A stretch of DNA of 62,887 nt, filler included, from Rhabdomonas costata (lineage: Eukaryota), in assembly GCA_019059605.1 (NCBI GenBank). It is 49 parts of 49 records of this genome, joined end to end, with 100 filler letters (N's around TTAATTAATTAA, not from the genome) between each part and the next. Parts side by side here need not be neighbours in the genome. Positions count along the whole stretch, not along the records: positions 1,284 to 2,466 come from JAHMHO010024492.1; positions 2,567 to 3,753 come from JAHMHO010024493.1; 47 more parts are not named here. One strand, given 5' to 3'. The position numbers and the translations under genes were made by a program. The notes under the pieces are model-generated. The model made no database searches. It was not told the origin of the DNA and saw only the letters and a program-made list of their open reading frames with translations. This document shows positions 1,284 through 59,033 of the stretch, piece by piece; the stretch's first letter is position 1; each line of letters starts with the position of its first letter.

Positions 1284-1297
1284 GGGTTGTGGGTACC

Positions 1298-1477
1298 GCC
1301 GTCAAACCCTCCGGTGCAGCGGGCAGCGGGCAAGAAGCGGCACAAGATTGTACAATATATAAAATAATATAATAATAAAATATGTAATCATATATATGAG
1401 CCGCCAAAAATGGAAGTGACTGGCCTGGGGTGCAAGGACCAGCGCGCAGCCGTTTCCTGTGCTTCGGCTTAAGCCCT
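1298..1477. ncRNA. Candidate structured RNA/DNA motif, copy A
   Basis: Shares ordered blocks with 2579-2762 (GCYGTC, CCCTCCG, GGGCAAGAAGCGGC, GAGCCGCCAA, ACYGGCC, CAAGGACC, CGCAGC, TGCTTCGGCTTA, GCCCT), with covarying stems. Confidence 0.5.
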
Positions 1478-2039
1478 ATAGTCAGACATCGCTTCAAGTG
1501 CAAAAAAAAAATCGGTCACTTTTGACCAGTATGCTGTTCCAGCTGTTAGGCAGTTTTGAAGGTATGGAAGTTGGATCCTCGAGTGACTACAAAGTTTTCC
1601 GTTCTCCATTACGGGAGGGAGGAAGATGGTTCACAATTACCCGGAAAGGTGTAGACACTGGAGCTAAAACAAAGGACACTTTCGAGAAATTTACCCCCCA
1701 GGTTGAAGTTGAGAAGTCCTTGCTGTTCTCCAGAAATCGGTGACCGAGGTCCGGCTGCTGTCTCGTGCGTGGGACAAGGCGACCCAGTGGCTGCGTCGAC
1801 CTGAGGGATCTCTAGGTCGACAGTAGACGGTCCTCCTACCGTTCCCAACGAAGGGAAACAGCAAGAAAAGATAGTCAGCAGACCGCAGGCGCAGAAGACT
1901 CTTCAAAAATCTTTAGCAGAAGGAGAATGGTGATTGAGGAGTAGCTACGCTGGGGGGGTTCAACTTCACTGTGTCTGCAAAAGTCGAGTTTGAACTTCGG
2001 TTACACGTGACGTGGGGCCAAACTACTCAGTCCGCGGAC

Positions 2040-2466
2040 CGGCAGTGCCAGATGTCGAAGATTGGTTTAACTGCAGTTGTGCAACAACTAGGCAATGAGC
2101 ACTCTTGGTGATTTTGACATGAGACGTGACACTTTGACGGCAGAAACAGCAGTTCAACGTCATATCTCGACTACAGAAATGGGCCGAAGGTGACTGGGAG
2201 TCCCTTTGGAGTGAAGCCAAAGCATACGGTGCCGCCCTGACAGAATGCCAGAGCCGCAAGCACGCAGTTGAAACACCGGGCAATGATCCATAGACTCACC
2301 GCTGTCAGGCGATCCTGAGTACTTTGGCGAACCGGGGTTGCTCCAAAGCCGCAAGAGAGCTCGCATTGGCGGGAGTCCACGACTTGACGGCAGAGGTGCT
2401 ACAAAAGCTACGGGACCTGCACTCTGGCGGCGCAAGACTGGAGTCGCCTGCGTCCAACCCCAACAA
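2040..2466 (+). mobile_element. Degenerate CRE-clade non-LTR retrotransposon, pre-RT region
   Basis: The frame from 2168 reads RLQKWAEGDWESLWSEA...*...GCSKAARELALAGVHDLTAEVLQKLRDLH, matching the RL..W..G....LW and SKA...L...G.......V...L..LHP motifs of CRE-like ORFs; it has an in-frame stop. The start is approximate. Confidence 0.65.
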
Positions 2467-2578
2467 NNNNNNNNNNNNNNNNNNNNNNNNNNNNNNNNNN
2501 NNNNNNNNNNTTAATTAATTAANNNNNNNNNNNNNNNNNNNNNNNNNNNNNNNNNNNNNNNNNNNNTGTGTTGTGGGA

Positions 2579-2762
2579 GCTGTCGCCCTCCGCTGCATGG
2601 GGCAAGAAGCGGCGCAAAAGGGTTACGAAAGAGCCGCCAAGGGGCACTACAACCGGCCGAGGGTGAAAGATCGGCAATCTCCTGACCCCAAGGACCGGCC
2701 ACGCAGCGTTTCGGGAGGCCTGCTATATGCAAAAGACCCCAGGCCTGCTTCGGCTTAGCCCT
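2579..2762. ncRNA. Candidate structured RNA/DNA motif, copy B
   Basis: Homologous to 1298-1477; the extra inserts are self-complementary (GGGT/ACCC, AGGCCT/AGGCCT). Confidence 0.5.
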
Positions 2763-7765: not shown

Positions 7766-8621
7766 CGTCCAGTCGGGAGTAAGGGTACATGCGAAACTGT
7801 AAGAGCTCCTCCACAAGGTCCAGAACAGATGTCATCTGACTGAATAGCAGTACCTGTGCGCGTCAGATACGTGTGCCATAATGCACAATCCTGAAAAGAT
7901 TGACAGTGGTGTGGGTGACCAGGACATCTTCATCTGCAATCCCAGCCGACTCGAACCCCAATTTTGAATCCGACCACGGCTTCTGAAGTGCCAGTTTGAA
8001 AAAAGAAAATACACCTTGTGCCGTGAAGCCCTCAGGTTGGCCAACATTCTGTCCAGCACCTCAAACTTTCCGGAACTCCTGAGGGCGTAAGATTGTTTCA
8101 AAAGGGGAAACGACAAACTGCAAGGGAGAAAATGTATCTCGAAAATGGCAGGAACCCTGCCGATGCCGATGCACAAAGGTTCGCAATGACACGATGCCAG
8201 TGAACAAAATCACATGACTTGCAGCGGATGAAAGTTTGCACGGGATCAGTAATGTTCTTCCATACTGACATTCGCGAGTTATCATTCTGACCCCCCCTCC
8301 CCTCTCCCGCGCGTTCTGACTCGCTCATCAGGACTGCATCTACTAGATCGCTGCCCTTCGAACGGAAACCTTCCAGCAACTGAGAGGATCAAGGCAAAGA
8401 ATTGGAAAAGGGCGAGATGTCAAGTGTGGCAACGACGGGTACCGGATCAGCAGGTCCATTGCCCGGGCACAGGTGTCCTCGCCGGCGTCAGGAGGTGCCA
8501 AAAAGAGGCTGGGGTAGTCCTCATACATTAGGTAGGGGTGGTTGCAGACCTTCCGCAGCTGCATCACAATGTTGTTCAGCGCTCGCCGCGACGGGGGCTC
8601 AGCCCCTCCAGCACTCCAAAG
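7766..8621 (-). CDS. SNF2-family chromatin-remodelling ATPase, partial, 3 exons (8621-8443, 8078-8015, 7853-7766)
   Basis: Phase-consistent GT-AG splicing gives LNNIVMQLRKVCNHPYL...LIRSSGKFEVLDRML...HKVLLFSQMTSVLDLVEELL...YSRLDG. Confidence 0.95.
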
Positions 8622-10278: not shown

Positions 10279-10933
10279 GACCCATCAGTGAAGAGTTCCT
10301 TCACGGTGAGGGTGCTGGGCATTGCCCCCGAGACGCAGTTCTGCATTGGGTTTACGAAGGTTTCTGTGTGCATCAACTTTCAACTTGTGTTCTGACCCTT
10401 CCCCGGAGGTTCCTTGCTTCACGATCTTCACGGGGACTTCTCTCTTGCTTTATCCCGTGTTCACCCAATGCCTCCAATTCTTCCTGTTGTGTTCGCTTCT
10501 TCCAGTATTTTTGCCTTTTTAGGCCCTTGGAAGCAAACAGCAATCTGCCAATTTTAGGGTTTCCTTTCTACAATGCATCCCGGCCTAGGCGCCGTCTCCG
10601 CAAGTTTGGGCCATCGAAGCTGACTGGTGCTTTTGCCTCTGATGTAGGCTGCAGTCGATCTCCGGGTGTCGGACCAGCACTGGCTGGGCTCCGCGGAGCT
10701 TCCCGGCAGCGTGGCCCTGGTGAGCGTTGGGGGGATGGTAAGTCTGATGAGTGATGGCCGTCAGCTTCAGGCTCTGCCGGGGTGCCCTCCGTTCGCCGAG
10801 GGGGACTGCCTTCGGGTGCAGATTCGCCATAAAATGGCCTCCTTTCACCGCAATGGGGTGCAGCTTGGAGGCGGGATCGGGCCTCTGGAGGAGCTGTACC
10901 GCTACGCGATCTCTTTGACCGGGGTGGAAAAAG
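10279..10933 (+). CDS. SPRY/B30.2-like domain protein, partial (exons 10279-10359 and 10648-~10933)
   Basis: SFTVRVLG...FCIGFTK | ...FAEGDCLRVQI...SFHRNGVQLG...YRYAISL; phase-0 GT-AG intron. Confidence 0.7.
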
Positions 10934-11108
10934 GCAGAACACCAAACGAAGCCAGACCCGTGTTTGTTTATTTTCGCTTTTGTGCACTCATCGCCCATAT
11001 GACTGTTTCACCTTCACCTCTTTCTGTGTAGGACGACTCCTTTTCTGCGCGTGCTTTCATATCTGGTGCTTTCACACCTTTCACACCTTTCACGAGTCCC
11101 CGATTCAA

Positions 11109-11464
11109 ATGATGTGCGCCTTGTTTTTTGCTACGTGTGGCCTGTTGTGTGGGGGCCTCTCCATTCTCACGGTGGGGCTACTGGTGGGCTTTGAGGCGGG
11201 CACCAGTGGTGCGGTGGTTGGTATATGCCTGGCTCTTAGCGCGGTGCAGTGGGGTGTGATGCGGTGGCAGTTTAGCCACTGCCTTTTGGCGCGCGGCCGT
11301 TCCAGCACATACTACTGCAGCAGTCGACGGCCATGGTGGTGGTGGTTGGTGTGGGCGGAGGTTCATGCGGTGCAGAGGGAGTTGGCCGCCCTGCACTCCC
11401 ATCGTCAGGACGACATGCTTCGGTTCCTGAGCAACCTCTCGCACGAGCTCAACACCAACCTCAA
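11109..11464 (+). CDS. Membrane-anchored histidine kinase, N-terminal part (2 TM + HisKA H-box)
   Basis: Two hydrophobic segments followed by RFLSNLSHELNTNL; truncated by the contig end. Confidence 0.75.
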
Positions 11465-12088: not shown

Positions 12089-12849
12089 CGCGAGGCAAGG
12101 GAACTCAGCTTACAAGGGAAGGGTACAGAGTCTTGTCAATCGGGTCGACCTCACGGGCTCCATACACAATAAACATGGAACATAGAAAAGCAGCAGAGGA
12201 ACCGAAATTGCAACGGAGATAACGACACTGAAAGAATGCCCAGAAGCCCCCGGTTCCATAGAGCATTATGCGGCAAACGTCCAGAAACGCTACACAGTCC
12301 ATTCACCCTCGGCCGACGTGTGAGGCTTTTTGCAGGTTTTTCGCCTCATTTAGGGCTTCTCAACGGGTTCCGACAATCTCAAAGGAAACTAATCAAATCA
12401 TTCAAAGGGCAGATTTGGTATCTGATGGTCAATCGTTACAGCTCTTTGACCAAATACATTCTCTTTCCCATTTTCACTAGTGGCTCAGTGCTTCCAACAG
12501 ACAGCTGGAAAAAGAAGCTTAGAAGCTAAAAAAAAAAGGGCGCTTAAAGGAAATATCCCTTCCCAGAGAGAAATTTTAAAGCCAACTAAAGGAGCAAAAG
12601 ACCTCATATATCAATACAGACATCCCAGAGCGCGGTGAGGAACGTGTGTAACACTCGCCACGTGTAAACCGCGTGTAAAACTCACCACATCCATTGTAGC
12701 TTACAAACCACACAGAGAAAGCAATCAGCCGTGGGTTCCCCACACCCCCNNNNNNNNNNNNNNNNNNNNNNNNNNNNNNNNNNNNNNNNNNNNTTAATTA
12801 ATTAANNNNNNNNNNNNNNNNNNNNNNNNNNNNNNNNNNNNNNNNNNNN

Positions 12850-13071: not shown

Positions 13072-13554
13072 CTCAGCAGCTTGTCCAGGAAGATCAGCTT
13101 GGTAGACGACTTCACCAGCTGCTCGGCCCTTTCCTCGGGAAGAAGACTCAGGGTCGCCCGCTCTGTGCGCCCAACCCTCCAATGCAAAGCGGTCGCGCCC
13201 ACAAAGGTGCGCACACGCACACAAAGGTGAGAAAAGGTTCCTTAGTCTATATATGTAGCGTCTATATATGTAGGAACCCTTCATCTTGCACCGAAGCACG
13301 GTGCAAGCACATACGCACTCTTAACCGAACGGAGGCAATGAGCTGCTGACTACTATACATTGCAGAGATGATATTTCGTTCTTGATGTGCTTTCTTTTGG
13401 AGTGGTGGTGCTGGCGGGTGGCGGTGGTAGTGGTAAGGGCAATGGGGAAGGTGAGGAAGAAGAGGACCTTCCGCCCCAGCCAAGAGGTACGGGTGGTTGC
13501 AAACTTTCCGCAGCTGCATCATCAGGTTGTTCAGCCGAACCATCCGGCCCTTCG
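13072..13554 (-). CDS. Second SNF2-family (CHD-like) ATPase, partial, exons 13554-13468 and 13162-13072
   Basis: RLNNLMMQLRKVCNHPYLLAGAEE...EQLVKSSTKLIFLDKLL; phase-1 GT-AG intron. Confidence 0.92.
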
Positions 13555-33420: not shown

Positions 33421-33863
33421 CTCTCGGAGAATGGGGTGTATTGTGAGCGCGAAGAAGGCTGGGCCCAAGGGGTCTCTCTGGTGGGCCCCATGGGAAGACA
33501 AGAACTCCTTACCTGCAATGGGGACGGAAGGCTGGCCGTAGCTGAAGTGGGCCCAGCCAGCTCCCGAGTGGTGCGGGACAGCAGGCTGCTTGCCGAAGGA
33601 GGGCATGCCTGTCTACGCTGTTGAAAGCGTTGCTCAGGTCCACTTGGAGGGCAAAGAGAGCCTTGTCGTGGGCAAATAGTTGACGCAGCTCTCGGGCTAA
33701 GCTCTGCGCCTCCGGGAATCCCCACTCCGACCTGAAGAGGGCTGAGCTCGTCAACCAGAACGTCGCCGTGCACTGCGGTTAGGGCCTTGGAGGTAATGCG
33801 CCACAGTATTTCGCCGACAACGATGGGCCCCAAACCTCCGGTCTGTTTCCGAAAGGGACGAGC
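33421..33863 (-). mobile_element. Degenerate CRE-clade non-LTR retrotransposon RT domain
   Basis: GGLGPIVVGEILWR...LSPLQVGVGIPGGAE / VDLSNAFNSVDR / SYGQPS...GAHQRDPLGPAFF across two frameshifts. Confidence 0.88.
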
Positions 33864-34398
33864 TGAGCGGCGGAAATCCATGGCGCGCCCCATGCGGATA
33901 ACAGTCTGGCGGCAGATATTTCGAGCCAGCGCAGCGACTGGAGAACGTCATGCTGTTCTTGCAGTCGGAAGCAAACAGAACTTGCGGAAGAACCATCTAC
34001 CCCAGTGCAGCCAATCGTGACACCGAGCCTACTTTCCAAACAAGCACGCACAGATCTCCCCAGAGACCGCTGCCAAGAAATAGCAACCAACCACACCACG
34101 AGAACTACCAAGAATGACCAATGACGAACGCCACAAAGAAGCAAAGAAGGATAGCCAGGCACAGCATGTCCACGAGGCAGAGAGACACATGTATGTGTAT
34201 ACATGGGCACATACATATCGCCCCTTCGACATCATGTATTGTAGGTAAAAACCGGCCGCTGTCGCGAAGGCCGGAGACCAGGAATAATAGCGTAGTGTGG
34301 CGGTAAAGCTGACCTTTGGGGGACAGTTCATCTCTGTTTGGGCATTTTTCATTTGCCCCTTGCTTCAGTGAGCTCGTTTCTCGCTCACATACGCAAAG

Positions 34399-47468: not shown

Positions 47469-50306
47469 NNNNNNNNNNNNNNNNNNNNNNNNNNNNNNNN
47501 NNNNNNNNNNNNTTAATTAATTAANNNNNNNNNNNNNNNNNNNNNNNNNNNNNNNNNNNNNNNNNNNNTTTTGGGCAATTGTTATTAATAGGGGATGCGG
47601 GAGCCGGGGCTGCGGCGTTAAATGTTTTTGCAGTGCTAAACGTTTCGCTTTGTGGATTTTTGGAATTGTGGTTGCTTTGGTTGACAACTGGTAGGGTGAA
47701 ACTAATGGGTATGGTGTCTTATGAGTGAAGACCGCGGTTTGGTGGAGCTAAACGTCCCCCCCCCCCATCTCCGCCCCTCGAAAAAAATAGATGAGATCCT
47801 GCCTGCTCTTTTGTGCGCTCCGCATTGTCCTTTTGCAGTTTTTTGGTTTGCCTTTAAACTCAGCAGTGATTCATCATGACTTGTAGGAAAGGAAAAGTCA
47901 ATAATTTGTTGGAAAACCGGGAACTGTCGCTAATAAAAGTATGTGAACAAATTGTTCCTGCAGTGGTCACCGCGCGGAGGAAAAAACCATGAGGTAGAAG
48001 CAGCTAGAAAAAGAGTAGGAAGGGGGATGTAGTTGTTGTGTTTTGTCTCTATTTTTTTTGAAGCAAGACACGAAATACATGAGCTGTACGTCGGTGGAAA
48101 CTCGGCAAAGGCGACCGGGGAAATGGAAGGCAGCAAAACAGTTAATTTGTGTGCATGAATTCGTAGGGATCATTCTCCTCGCAGGTGCTCCCCCAGGATT
48201 TCTGCGCTCCGGGGATGAGCTGCAGCGAGCTTGTAGTGAACGTCTAACCCACCACCGCCTTCCCAATTAAGTGTACACCATCTTGTGAAGTGGCTTTGGA
48301 CTTCAATAGATTTGGATGTGCTTCTCGATTAAACGACGTGATTTGTGTACCGTATAGAAACGCTTCGAGCACATTGCCCAAAAATACATTTCGAGATTTC
48401 TCAATCATCTTCCTATCTTTTCCGTGTGCCCTTTACTGCTGTGCACAGTTTCTTCTTTGTTTAGAGTTTGCCTGTGCACTGACTTTCTAGATCCTCCTCT
48501 TGCTCTGTCTCTTTGTTTGTTTGCTTTGCAATTCTGCATCCGTGTCGTATGCTGGCGTTTCCACACTGGGGCATTCATGCTTACCCCATCTTGTTAGATA
48601 ATTCCTGCACTGTACAGATGTCCTTTTCTTCTACTACTTTTTCTTCTACTTCCAGATGGTACAGTGGATGCTGTTTCTTTTTTCTCTCGGACTTTTTGAA
48701 CACAAGGAGGAAGTTCGGAATATCAGATTTACAGCAGCAGAGAGCTAAGCACAANNNNNNNNNNNNNNNNNNNNNNNNNNNNNNNNNNNNNNNNNNNNTT
48801 AATTAATTAANNNNNNNNNNNNNNNNNNNNNNNNNNNNNNNNNNNNNNNNNNNNGGGCAGTCGGGGTTGCCGTTGTTGGGCGATCTCTGGTGGAGGGGCA
48901 CACAGAGACATCAACGAGGATGCGCACGAGACGGAGACCCAGCTGTCTTTGGGGAGAGTGGGGGGCTAACAATTACCCGTGAAGACGGGAAAATGCGTCC
49001 ACCCTCGGAAGTGAAGACTTCGGCTGAAATCATTCTAGGGCTGTAAGTTGGCAAACACGTCGAACACGAACATGGTAGCTTCGGAGGCAGAGGCCAGCAA
49101 AAAGGTGCGGAAGTGGCTGCCTGGCTGAGGATGACTGTGAGCGGGTGCTGTAGCGGATCTGCCCAGTCGGGAAACCCATTGCCGATGGTAATAGTTAACT
49201 CCCGCCCCACCACACCACCACACGACACCCACGAGAAGAAAAGAGAAAGGGAAAATATTTGGGCTGGAGCCGAATCTTGTCAAGATGCGTCAGTGTCAAG
49301 GGATTGTTTTCGATGACGAGGAGTGGGCTATACACATAGTGGGATAGAGCCGAGTGCGAGGGTGGAGCAGAAAAGCTGTGCCGGTTGATACCAGTGTCCA
49401 TATTGCGGGTGCGAGTTTGGTTTGATTGTTTACTTCACAGAAAAACGGAGACCTAATCCCTCTCCGTGCTAACTAACGCGGCAAAAGCACTTCATGAAGA
49501 AGTACCGTATTAGCTTTGACGGTAGTGCTTTGGTCAAGTTGAAGCTATGCACAGCACAACACACGTGCCCAGAGGTGATGACAGTGACATTCCAGCTGAC
49601 GACTGCCCCTTTTCCACGACCGAAAGAATGCGAAAAGGTCGGACAGGAGAAAATGGGGAACCAGGACAGCAAAGTAGGAAATTAAGAGAGGGAGCCACGC
49701 CGTGGCCCACACCTTCAGGATGCCGATTCTCGCCCTTCGGCGCTGGGGGATTTTGGTGAGAAGCCTTCGGGGAACGGCTTATCCGCTGCTACAGCAGAAG
49801 CACAGGCACATCCGAACATCCCCCACCCCCAACAACAGGCTTGCATTTAATTTTCGCAAAGAAGGGCACGCCAACAATCACAGAGGTGGACCGTCAATCA
49901 CGGACAGAGGACAACATAAACAGAGGCAGAAGAAGTTTCTCCAAAAGGGCCGCAGCGCGGAGAGCGATGCCTTCATCTCAGCTGGTGTTGCAATACTGTC
50001 GTAGAGAGTCGTCCGGTTGTACCAATAAACAACACCCCCNNNNNNNNNNNNNNNNNNNNNNNNNNNNNNNNNNNNNNNNNNNNTTAATTAATTAANNNNN
50101 NNNNNNNNNNNNNNNNNNNNNNNNNNNNNNNNNNNNNNNGTTGGTGTGGGGAGCATTCACGTTCACCACCCGACTTCACGCGCAGCGTTTGGGCGGACCT
50201 GCTCAGCAAATAATGGCCGGGTAAGCCTGCCCGGTTTGAAGTACGAAAGGTCAGATATGAATATATGAAATCCGATGAAAAGATGAAAAGAGGAGTCAAT
50301 ATAGAC

Positions 50307-50702
50307 CTGCACCGCGCCCAGGATGCCATTCAAGCTGGTGTTCAGCTCATGGCTAAGCCGCGACAGCATCGTCACCATTGAGTGCCGGTCAGGAGGAGAC
50401 TCCACCTGTGAGCTTACGTACAGCGATACTTCTGGAGGGCGCAGGGTCTCCCTCCAGCACAGCCACCGCAACGCTCGCGCCTTCCGGGGACTATCCTGCT
50501 CCATACAAACCCGAAGCTGAAGAGCGCACAGCCAGCCCTGCGCCACCCCAAACACGACGCACAACACCGCCGCAACACTCATCCTCAGCCCCAGCGAAGG
50601 CGCGGATGGCGCCCCAGCCGAAACCAACAGCACGCAGCTCACGGCAAGCCCCAGCAGGAGGTGCAGCCCAAGCTGTACTGCAACCACGGGAAGCCCAAAC
50701 AT
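50307..50702 (-). CDS. Second membrane-anchored histidine kinase, first exon (2 TM + HisKA)
   Basis: MFGLPVV...two TM...LSRLSHELNTSLNGILGAVQ|GT. Confidence 0.82.
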
Positions 50703-51586
50703 TGATCTGTGGAGGAGTTCTGCGGTTGCAAGTGTGCACCACCTGTCCCGTTACCAAGAGGGACTACTCATGCGCGAAAAAAGAATGGTGGAAAAATGAT
50801 CCGAATAGATGGTGCGTCAGGGTTTTTGAATGGTCAGCAAGGACGGTACAAAAGATTGGGTGCCGTGCAGGTATACAAGCAAACTTGTCACGGAAAAGAA
50901 AGAGACAAGCTTTCTGAAAAGAGATTCCAATGTCCAGGATGTGCAGATGTGTGGTTTGGGTGATTGGGACAGAAATAATGTCTGTGTATATTTGTGCGCA
51001 AAAGAAAAAGACGGAGGAGAAGGATGCTGTTTCAATGAGTTTCCACCCCGATGAAGAACAAAAGCAGGAAAGGTGTGTTTGAGGGAGATAATCCATGTCC
51101 CTGCATAGGTCTCCCTGGGAGAGTCCCCCCCCCAGCCCCCACCACGCGCTGAATTCGCGCTTGATATGTGATTATAATCAACAGTTTTCAGGAAGCTGAC
51201 CTAACTATCTGATTACTTGCCGAGAGTGCACATCCCTTGACTGAGAAATTTCAATCAATGGGAAAGCATGGAGAATATATATGCCTCCCCTGTACCGTCC
51301 TTGCTGACCATTCAAAAACCCAACNNNNNNNNNNNNNNNNNNNNNNNNNNNNNNNNNNNNNNNNNNNNTTAATTAATTAANNNNNNNNNNNNNNNNNNNN
51401 NNNNNNNNNNNNNNNNNNNNNNNNCGGTATGCCAGCTGTCTGCGCTTGCGTTTCCACTGCAATGATTCACACACGTTTAGTGGTCGTGTAATCTGGTTTT
51501 CAGTCAAGATGCGGTCGAGCGAAATATCGAGTCGGCCCAAAGATTGGTGGTGGTGTTCAAGGGGACTGGTCATCTTTATCCTCCAG

Positions 51587-57439: not shown

Positions 57440-58263
57440 CTACACGACCAAATTTCGGAGCACAACACAGAACATCAGCTCGAAGAAATATTAGCGCTTC
57501 CATGGGATTCCAGCAGGGATCGCTTGACGGCACAGCTCAGGATACCGCAGAGGACCACAGGCATAAATATAGGCTGAAAAGACTTTGAAACTGCTAATTT
57601 CTCAGTTTTCGGGGTGTTACTAGCCTCATAATGATAATAGTGGCCATGATATCCGATTATACGGGCACCCCCCCTCAAGTACCGTTCCCCAAAAGATCAG
57701 TCCAAATGAAAAACCTGCGCTTTTCGTTCAAAAAGCCGCCGAAACGCTNNNNNNNNNNNNNNNNNNNNNNNNNNNNNNNNNNNNNNNNNNNNTTAATTAA
57801 TTAANNNNNNNNNNNNNNNNNNNNNNNNNNNNNNNNNNNNNNNNNNNNTTTGTTGTGTACATTTTTTTGCGTTGTTTCTCGGTTTCTTCCGACACAGGAG
57901 ATTTCACTGGGGCTATCGGTGGACCGGGCGGCTGAGATAGGAGGCTGTCTCGGTTTTCAACAGGAGAATTTTAAACGCGTACGCGGGCGTTGCAGACATT
58001 TCGAAGCTTACTCTGTGAAGTTTTGTGCGCGGAGCAGCCTCAATTCCAAGACCTTTCACACACACAGTACAAAAGACTACCGTTGCAACCCTCGTTGTGC
58101 GTATAACGGCGGCCCCTTCTCCTAAAACGATCCTTGACCTGGATCGAGCATATGAAAGGCAATGTTTTTTTAGCGCTCGAGGATGTATCTCGTTGAATAC
58201 CACGTCGCTTCATCAGTCCTCCCTTTTGGTTCTTCCTGCCTTTGTTTGTGGTTTGCCCCTCAG

Positions 58264-59033
58264 CCGTGCCGACCTGCAGCGTTTCCACGTGGGCGAGTTT
58301 GTGTGGTGCATCAAGCTCGCAGACCATCGTGGACCTGTACAGCTACCAGTGCACAGGGACGCTGGACTTCTCCTTCTTCTCCTCCGTCACTTCCCTTACG
58401 ATTTATTCCGCTACCTTTGTAGGCGCCCTGACCATTCAGAATCTTCCTAACACTTTGATCTCACTGACGATTTACACCACAACCTTTGGCTCCGGCCTCA
58501 GTCTTGGCACCCTTCCCAGCTCGCTTTCCTTTCTCTGGATATACAGCTGCACCTTTAACTTCAGCCTCACCCTCGGCTCCATGCCCAGCTCCCTTCGGAC
58601 CTTCTACTTTTATTACAACACGATCCAGGGAGCCCTCAGCGTGAGCCTCCCCACCGGCGTGACCTACTTGGATATCAGCAGCATCAATCTCGCAGGTAAT
58701 CTACAGGTCACCAACATGCCCTACTTCAGCTCAGTTTCCATCTACTCCATCCGCTTGACAGCGAACTTCACTCCAACATTCACCTTCTCTCGGTCCAGTG
58801 GCACCTTCTCAACGTTTTCCCTGTATAGCAACTACTTTCCCTCGGGCGTCATACTCAACTTTCTCAGCTCGGTGTCCATCCTGGAGTTTTACAGCAATGC
58901 CATCTGTGGTAGCGTCTCCTCGACAGGGACCATCAGCAGTGGCAGCGTGTACGGCAACTCCGTGTCCTTCAGCTCCTCTGCACTGCAGGCCATGTTCCCA
59001 ACGCTGCCCAGCAGCAGCTTCTTCACCAACACA
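58264..59033 (+). CDS. Ser/Thr-rich LRR/FNIP-like repeat protein, probably extracellular
   Basis: Repeats of about 22 aa: LPNTLISLTI, LPSSLSFLWI, MPSSLRTFYF, LPTGVTYLDI; 770-nt open frame after CAG. Confidence 0.8.

Follow-up and report, generated by a model that had tools for sequence, protein, structure and literature searches.

What is the block-structured motif that opens two contigs of the Rhabdomonas costata assembly GCA_019059605.1: a free-standing structured RNA, the tail of a mobile element, part of a gene, or a product of the library? The window, meaning the whole stretch of DNA analysed, comprises 62,887 bases, in which 49 contigs of 1182-1193 bp are joined by N/TTAATTAATTAA linkers; the two copies of the motif, designated A and B, lie at the starts of two of these contigs. 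An earlier reading made from the sequence alone (hereafter the sequence-only reading) had proposed a multicopy structured RNA of about 180 nt, possibly a new ribozyme, a short interspersed element (SINE) or a retroelement terminus. The analysis reported here favours, with moderate confidence, the view that A and B form the ~190 nt at the 3' end of a larger (an estimated ~450-500 nt), non-coding, dispersed, multicopy eukaryotic repeat, most likely a non-autonomous mobile element.

A and B are homologous. Gapped local alignment of A (1294-1480) with B (2578-2765) gives a score of 50.5; the highest value among 2068 190-nt tiles cut from the remaining contigs is 33.5, and that among 1000 shuffles is 35. 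The pair gives no blastn match at E<=1e-3, the similarity being too patchy, and is instead made up of ordered blocks common to both copies: CCCTCCGSTGC, GGGCAAGAAGCGGCRCAA, GAGCCGCCA, GGCC..GGGTG, CAAGGACCRG, CGCAGC, GTTTC and TGCTTCGGCTTA. The description of such blocks on two separate contigs was borne out by the block comparison as well as by the score. Between the blocks, lengths vary freely. The loop of a first candidate hairpin (H1), in which GCGGC/GCCGC had been described as closing either a long or a short loop, indeed measures 58 nt and is AT-rich in A, 19 nt in B, and 19 and 16 nt in two further copies introduced below; the corresponding values for a second hairpin (H2) are 10, 33, 34 and 10 nt. 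An 11-nt spacer between CCAA and ACYGGCC, reported as constant, is present in A and B and is 6 nt shorter in a metagenomic relative.

The placement of both copies at contig starts beside primer-type runs, together with the absence of the pair from blastn results at the above threshold, raises the possibility of chance resemblance, or of an amplification or assembly artefact such as a chimera or primer-derived sequence. G/T-only runs of at least 8 nt open 30 of the 49 contigs and A/C-only runs of at least 8 nt close 33, with no opposite-sense run at either end (0/49 and 0/49). A whole-genome amplification (WGA) primer with a K10NN tail appears in the methods of a Repli-seq study (PMC10781638), and the G/T-only and A/C-only contig ends are the footprint of a primer of this kind, so that the contigs are essentially single amplicons. 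At each of the two contig starts, the primer-type stretch takes up the first 10-11 nt. Two database open reading frames (ORFs), P0001 and P0002, both read ...KYVVGVVDKPSAAVG... at the place where copy A has VVGTAVKPSGAAG; GTTGTGGG is therefore natural repeat sequence, and A and B lie exactly at contig starts because the G/T-only primer anneals to this natural GTTGTGGG in the repeat. The motif in A and B is thus cut off by the amplicon edge. With an A-B score far above both nulls, and with independent relatives in a metagenome contig and in the two database ORFs, an artefactual or chance origin is refuted and retains a negligible probability. The case nevertheless carries a caution, in that a motif met twice at contig starts had been placed there by the primer bias of an amplified library.

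Other contig ends carry features of the same library. Several of them resemble the invariant portion of the universal WGA primer (GTGTTGGGTGTG...), amplification primers having escaped trimming in this assembly, and primer-type runs stand at contig ends 5140-5165, 7707-7734, 12850-12877 and 56564-56591. Exact short direct duplications at contig starts (1-59/113-171 and 3854-3911/3934-3991) and long near-perfect palindromes near contig ends (28040-28157, 60112-60314, 20256-20355 and 38570-38694) may have arisen as chimeras during amplification and not belong to the genome.

Relatives of the motif were sought by several routes. Scans with the 18-mer GGGCAAGAAGCGGCRCAA returned at least 119 metagenome loci and 120 loci in prokaryote genomes (239 aligned), and among the 239 matches listed a single metagenome contig, L094, proved to be a relative, with a score of 160.5 against 52 or less for all others. 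Its first 137 nt are 80.3% identical to B over 137 nt (L094:1-137, E about 1e-31), with a different flank. The copy is interrupted at a TA by a Tc1/mariner-type element of ~1.5 kb (L094:138-1637), which is TA-flanked and bounded by terminal inverted repeats (CCGGGTGTCTCAGAG...); its transposase lies on the minus strand in three frame pieces, the N-terminus of which matches DUF4817 and HTH_32. The 18-mer matches in prokaryote genomes (120 loci) and in viral contigs (15 loci) were dismissed as chance matches only, and the locus L254 was rejected on inspection. A second pattern gave no match in the viral contigs, and neither did a scan of metagenomes for GAGCCGCCA-A-N11-ACYGGCC-N2-GGGTG, a pattern that assumed constant spacing where the spacing proved variable.

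Within the window, a covariance model (R1) built from A, B and L094 and run over the whole length with filters off recovered A (91.8 bits, A itself being among the building sequences), B and a further stretch at 12282-12369 on the minus strand (14.6 bits, E=0.062). This candidate, D, has a 14-mer and a 10-mer in common with L094 (CGGCCGAGGGTGAA, GTAGCGTTTC). Its local alignment scores are 32.5 against L094, reached by 1 of 1012 null tiles, and 28.5 against B, reached by 6 of 1012, and its alignment with A is not above the null from the 1012 tiles. D is probably, not certainly, a copy of the repeat.

Two more copies appear to lie behind the database ORFs. When the open plus-strand frame of B was used as a phmmer query against 1.84 billion representatives, a single match was obtained, P0001 (160 aa, E=5.5e-5, residues 118-159), and a search with P0001 in turn retrieved P0002 (196 aa), the two being 64% identical over 140 aligned residues. 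Both come from short contigs and are the sole members of their clusters, neither matches any Pfam family, and the Atlas model of P0002 has a pLDDT (predicted local distance difference test) of 0.35; both look like spurious ORFs laid across repeat copies. Their similarity reaches ~110 residues, or ~330 nt or more, upstream of the motif, so that the motif is the tail of a unit of ~450-500 nt rather than a free-standing 180 nt, and the originally proposed length of ~180 nt does not hold. A tblastn search of the window with P0001 and P0002 found no further copy of the upstream part, the best other match (37% over 49 aa) being unconvincing.

The multicopy character that had been proposed is accordingly well supported: A and B are sure and D is weak, on three contigs of the window; L094 adds a copy in another setting, and P0001 and P0002 come from two more contigs. 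No two of the four copies A, B, D and L094 have related flanks. These observations also bear on an alternative to the mobile element, in which members of a multigene family would have the blocks in common as a conserved non-coding stretch, for instance a 3' untranslated region (UTR) or regulatory module. The sharp end of the similarity, the short A-run 24 nt downstream of A and the apparent constraint on the blocks would all suit such a module. However, nothing recognisable as a coding region lies upstream in P0001 and P0002 or around D, the flanks share nothing, and two to three copies in 49 random amplicons of ~1.2 kb (two sure and one weak in 58 kb of small contigs) imply a high copy number. 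A shared module of this type is regarded as unlikely.

A coding origin was also considered, namely that the blocks are the C-terminal end of a protein (GQEAAQ...ASA*) kept by amino-acid constraint. In B, 63 codons run without a stop between the contig start and a TAG, A and B both end in ...ASA plus a stop, P0001 follows the frame of B over 52 residues with 58% identity, and some of the spacing differences are multiples of 3 (39, 6 and 30 nt). Against this, other block spacings differ between copies by 7, 23-24, 1 and 1 nt, and the GAGCCGCC block falls in one frame in A and in another in B, whichever strand is read. Copy A needs at least two frame changes to be read through, the frame of B is broken in L094 by a TAA and a shift of 1 nt, and P0002 departs from the P0001/B frame in the H2 loop and goes on in the +1 frame of B. 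Frames thus agree between B and P0001 only, and differ in A, L094 and P0002. The lack of Pfam families and the disordered Atlas model point the same way, and the 58-67% amino-acid identity is what would be expected from ~80% nucleotide identity without selection. Since the copies do not hold to one reading frame, the repeat tail is non-coding; the protein explanation, which the sequence-only reading had itself named as a check, is largely refuted and very improbable.

Positions that A and B have in common also tend to be retained between B and the independent copy L094: B and L094 differ at 6 of the 76 positions where A equals B and at 18 of the 60 elsewhere (Fisher p=0.0012), conditioning alone being expected to give up to about two-fold of this effect, which tempers the favoured reading. 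The repeat tail is most likely under some constraint. A MAFFT alignment (A1) misplaced the 3' blocks, and an alignment anchored on blocks, not on structure, was used instead. On this alignment, RNAalifold recovers a long-range helix (H3) enclosing H1 and H2, with 48 of 51 alignment cells forming standard pairs and two double changes. The proposed long-range stem CGCTGC/GCAGCG, with its CGGTGC version, is thereby recovered, the A version requiring an indel. The number of stems of at least 4 bp with pairing in A as well as in B is 27, compared with 16.2 in column shuffles (5% reach 27); a separate column shuffle, limited to well-aligned columns, broke helix contiguity. In L094, H3 shows one G-C to G.U change and an adjacent A.C to G-C change, and a 10-bp H3 is present in its minimum free energy (MFE) fold. 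D keeps H2 with a G.U pair and has GAGGC/GCCTC where the others carry GCGGC/GCCGC. Plus-strand G.U wobbles occur in L094 (H3) and in D (H2, H3).

On the favoured reading, the undescribed repeat is probably a mobile element, and most likely a SINE-like retroposon or the tail of a long interspersed element (LINE). The simplest mechanism would be one in which three helices meet at a junction in the 3' region of the transcript, H1 and H2 being enclosed by H3, while the purine-rich GGGCAAGAAG of the junction and GRGGGUGMA in the loop of H2 remain unpaired. The tails of stringent-type LINEs and SINEs and the 3' UTR of R2 offer an analogy for its role: the copying machinery, for example a partner reverse transcriptase (RT), might recognise this junction. 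The pattern of conserved blocks between inserts of free length would then reflect constraint on active master copies.

A number of results weigh against this reading. At the level of the element, A, B and L094 start inside the repeat, and no 5' end, target-site duplication or partner ORF is seen; the upstream 330 nt represented in the P0001 and P0002 translations contain no RT or other domain by Pfam. A poly(A)-like run follows one of the two visible 3' ends only, the A10 run described earlier being confirmed at 1502-1511, 24 nt away from the end of A, and B has none (the 3' end of L094 is cut by the transposon and so stands outside this comparison). The significance of D is marginal. At the level of structure, the covariation score is matched by 49 of 500 shuffles, and stems with double-sided change number 2, compared with 3.6 in column shuffles (86% reach 2). 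Plus-strand MFE z-scores are +0.11 (A), +1.92 (B), -0.64 (L094) and -0.33 (D), those of the minus strand being -0.42 (A) and +0.92 (B). Pair probability falls to 0.00 for H3 in A and 0.01 for H2 in L094, and P0001, read back from its amino acids with third codon positions left free, implies that the inner pair of H1 is A.G and that H3 contains a C.A. The H2 arms, CTGGCC/GGaCCAG in A and CCGGCC/GGaCCGG in B, contain the T-A to C-G change just as it had been described, and its compensatory interpretation is weakened: CTGG/CCAG versus CCGG/CCGG amounts to a CpG-to-TpG and a CpG-to-CpA transition in palindromic arms. The window has a CpG observed-to-expected ratio of 0.78, with 1.20 for TG, 1.17 for CA and 0.57 for TA, which suggests a genome under some CpG-decay pressure, and two independent CpG decays in CCGG arms would appear compensatory half of the time. 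A single "compensatory" change in such arms can accordingly arise through CpG decay. The suggested GGGC/GCCC pseudoknot comprises 4 invariant bp with no variation between copies. With MFE z-scores between -0.64 and +1.92, the covariation score reached by 49 of 500 shuffles and double changes at shuffle level, the claim of a demonstrated structured RNA is not upheld; on three to four DNA sequences, a structure in the repeat tail is possible and suggestive, and stays unproven. "SINE or retroelement terminus" is still the most economical part of the earlier proposal.

The same evidence decides how much weight can be given to a free-standing small structured RNA gene family or a new self-cleaving ribozyme, in either of which the ~180-nt motif itself would be the functional unit. 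Conservation of the blocks despite free-length H1 and H2 loops, their retention in L094, the recovery of the helices by RNAalifold and the fact that no Rfam family claims the motif all speak for it. On the other hand, ~330 nt or more of upstream homology means that the unit is not 180 nt, fold stability shows no excess over shuffles, and covariation stays at control level. Comparison with known families is equally discouraging for the ribozyme proposal. Rfam 15 gave no match in the whole window at gathering scores, none at E<=10 over 1284-2800, and none overlapping the copies in L094 or the contig of D. Neither hammerhead, hepatitis delta virus (HDV)-like, twister, pistol, hatchet or hairpin ribozymes nor group II domains, signal recognition particle RNA or tRNA were found with it, no Rfam 15 ribozyme model matching the copies even at E<=10; the search for a known family that had been called for thus ended without one. 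ARAGORN likewise detected no tRNA-like gene and Rfam 15, at gathering scores, no rRNA in the window, in which a dinoflagellate spliced-leader fragment also had no match, and the three longest strings shared by A and B do not occur in the literature searched. An independent small RNA or ribozyme is therefore considered improbable.

A more specific, and doubtful, proposal can be built on the favoured repeat: the tail may contain an undescribed Y-shaped RNA module, in which H3 closes H1 and H2 around an invariant GGGCAAGAAG junction and an invariant GRGGGUGMA loop, selected across retroposon subfamilies and environmental relatives. It could serve as a handle for the copying enzyme or, less likely, be a new self-cleaving ribozyme. 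If real, it would add a new case, from a little-studied eukaryote, of a mobile element that marks its own transcript to be copied, and R1 would be a ready-made covariance model for finding the family. A Helitron or long terminal repeat (LTR) end at the 3' terminus was dropped by eye, no consistent CTRR or TG...CA end being seen. The coordinates of all features are collected in Table 1.

Table 1. Coordinates in the window of the repeat copies, their candidate helices and adjoining features.
Feature	Position	Strand	Basis or remark
G/T-only run GGGTTGTGGG opening contig A, contributed by the K10 stretch of the primer	1284..1293	+	30/49 contigs alike; P0001/P0002 read 'VVG' here
Copy A, repeat tail; H2 loop short, H1 loop AT-rich and 58 nt long, GCAGCGG (7 nt) duplicated in tandem	1294..1477	+	
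A, H3 5' strand CGGTGC	1312..1317	+	Pair probability 0.00 in A
A, H1 5' arm GCGGC	1337..1341	+	Probability 0.27
A, H1 3' arm GCCGC	1400..1404	+	RNAalifold, block alignment
A, H2 5' arm CTGGCC	1420..1425	+	Probability 0.73
A, H2 3' arm GGaCCAG, A bulged	1436..1442	+	RNAalifold, block alignment
A, H3 3' strand GCAGCCG, bulge or register shift required	1446..1452	+	
A, final shared block TGCTTCGGCTTA-AGCCCT	1460..1477	+	A-B alignment
A10 run, 24 nt past the final shared block, copy A only	1502..1511	+	
Open frame with one TAG, contig A, to the contig's own end (2466); unclassified	2138..2464	+	
G/T-only primer-type start TGTGTTGTGGG of contig B	2567..2577	+	Contig-end run counts
Copy B, repeat tail; 19-nt H1 loop, 33-nt H2 loop enclosing an inner hairpin	2578..2762	+	
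B, H3 5' strand CGCTGC; extended to 2600, up to 10 bp with one A.C mismatch	2591..2596	+	Probability 0.20
B, H1 5' arm GCGGC	2609..2613	+	Probability 0.42-0.46
B, H1 3' arm GCCGC	2633..2637	+	
B, H2 5' arm CCGGCC	2653..2658	+	Probability about 0.6
B, H2 3' arm GGaCCGG	2692..2698	+	
B, H3 3' strand GCAGCG	2703..2708	+	
B, additional hairpin AGGCCTG / CAGGCCT	2716-2722 / 2740-2746	+	
Copy D, weak diverged candidate inside a contig; hairpin TGAGGC/GCCTCA at the H1 place	12282..12369	-	R1, local alignments

The surroundings of the copies hold little that can be classified. The "CRE-like" ORF remnant reported beside A could not be substantiated: the frame at 2138-2464 has no match at E<=0.01 among proteins of near or greater length, the three forward frames of 1511-2466 contain no Pfam family, and no RT or endonuclease domain was recognised. 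The flanks of B have no Pfam match at the curated level.

Elsewhere in the window, Pfam searches of eight long ORFs gave weak FNIP and HisKA matches only. The first of these concerns a 279-aa open frame at 58197-59033 (+) with leucine-rich FNIP-type repeats (PF05725, E=2.9e-5, 24.5 bits, cut-off 21). Open frames at 50163-50750 (-) and 10833-11462 (+) carry an LS.LSHELNT.L motif after hydrophobic stretches, the former with a weak HisKA match below the cut-off (E=5e-4), and both may be fragments of membrane histidine kinases. At 33423-33947 (-), an open frame includes a reverse-transcriptase-like stretch (...LQVGVGIPGGAE...) whose nearest Atlas clusters are RVT_1 (scores 0.95-0.96); it has no Pfam match at E<=0.1, and no link between it and the repeat was found. 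Finally, a 51-nt stretch shared with 88% identity by two other contigs, c12850 (13485-13535) and c7707 (8530-8580), may represent another small repeat family.

Three known systems come closest to the repeat tail described here. HDV-like and other small self-cleaving ribozymes are carried by retroelements such as R2 and L1Tc and are located at the 5' ends of these elements. As small structured RNAs of non-LTR elements they resemble the present tail, whose structure is a candidate, whereas the motif in R. costata belongs to the 3' part, matches no Rfam ribozyme model at E<=10, and the pseudoknot proposed for it is 4 invariant bp. The R2 retrotransposon offers a second parallel in its 3' UTR, of which the structure, not the sequence, is kept between lineages, and its insertion is site-specific in 28S rDNA. 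Both the R2 3' UTR and the repeat tail would be multi-helix 3' RNAs of a few hundred nucleotides, and the RNA determinants of binding and target-primed reverse transcription in the former are the topic of PMC11194090. In contrast to R2, the flanks here are mutually unrelated and no rRNA was found in the window. The 3' tails of stringent-type LINEs, exemplified by the ZfL2/UnaL2-type, and of their partner SINEs differ from the repeat tail in forming a single stem-loop, whereas the candidate fold here is a three-helix junction of ~150 nt, and in the partner LINE, RT ORF, target-site duplication and directly attached poly(A) or simple repeat that are not seen here. They nevertheless share with it a short conserved 3'-terminal RNA element with hairpins in many dispersed copies, following the principle presented in PMC4176376, and in both the sequence is conserved where a reverse transcriptase would bind and free elsewhere.

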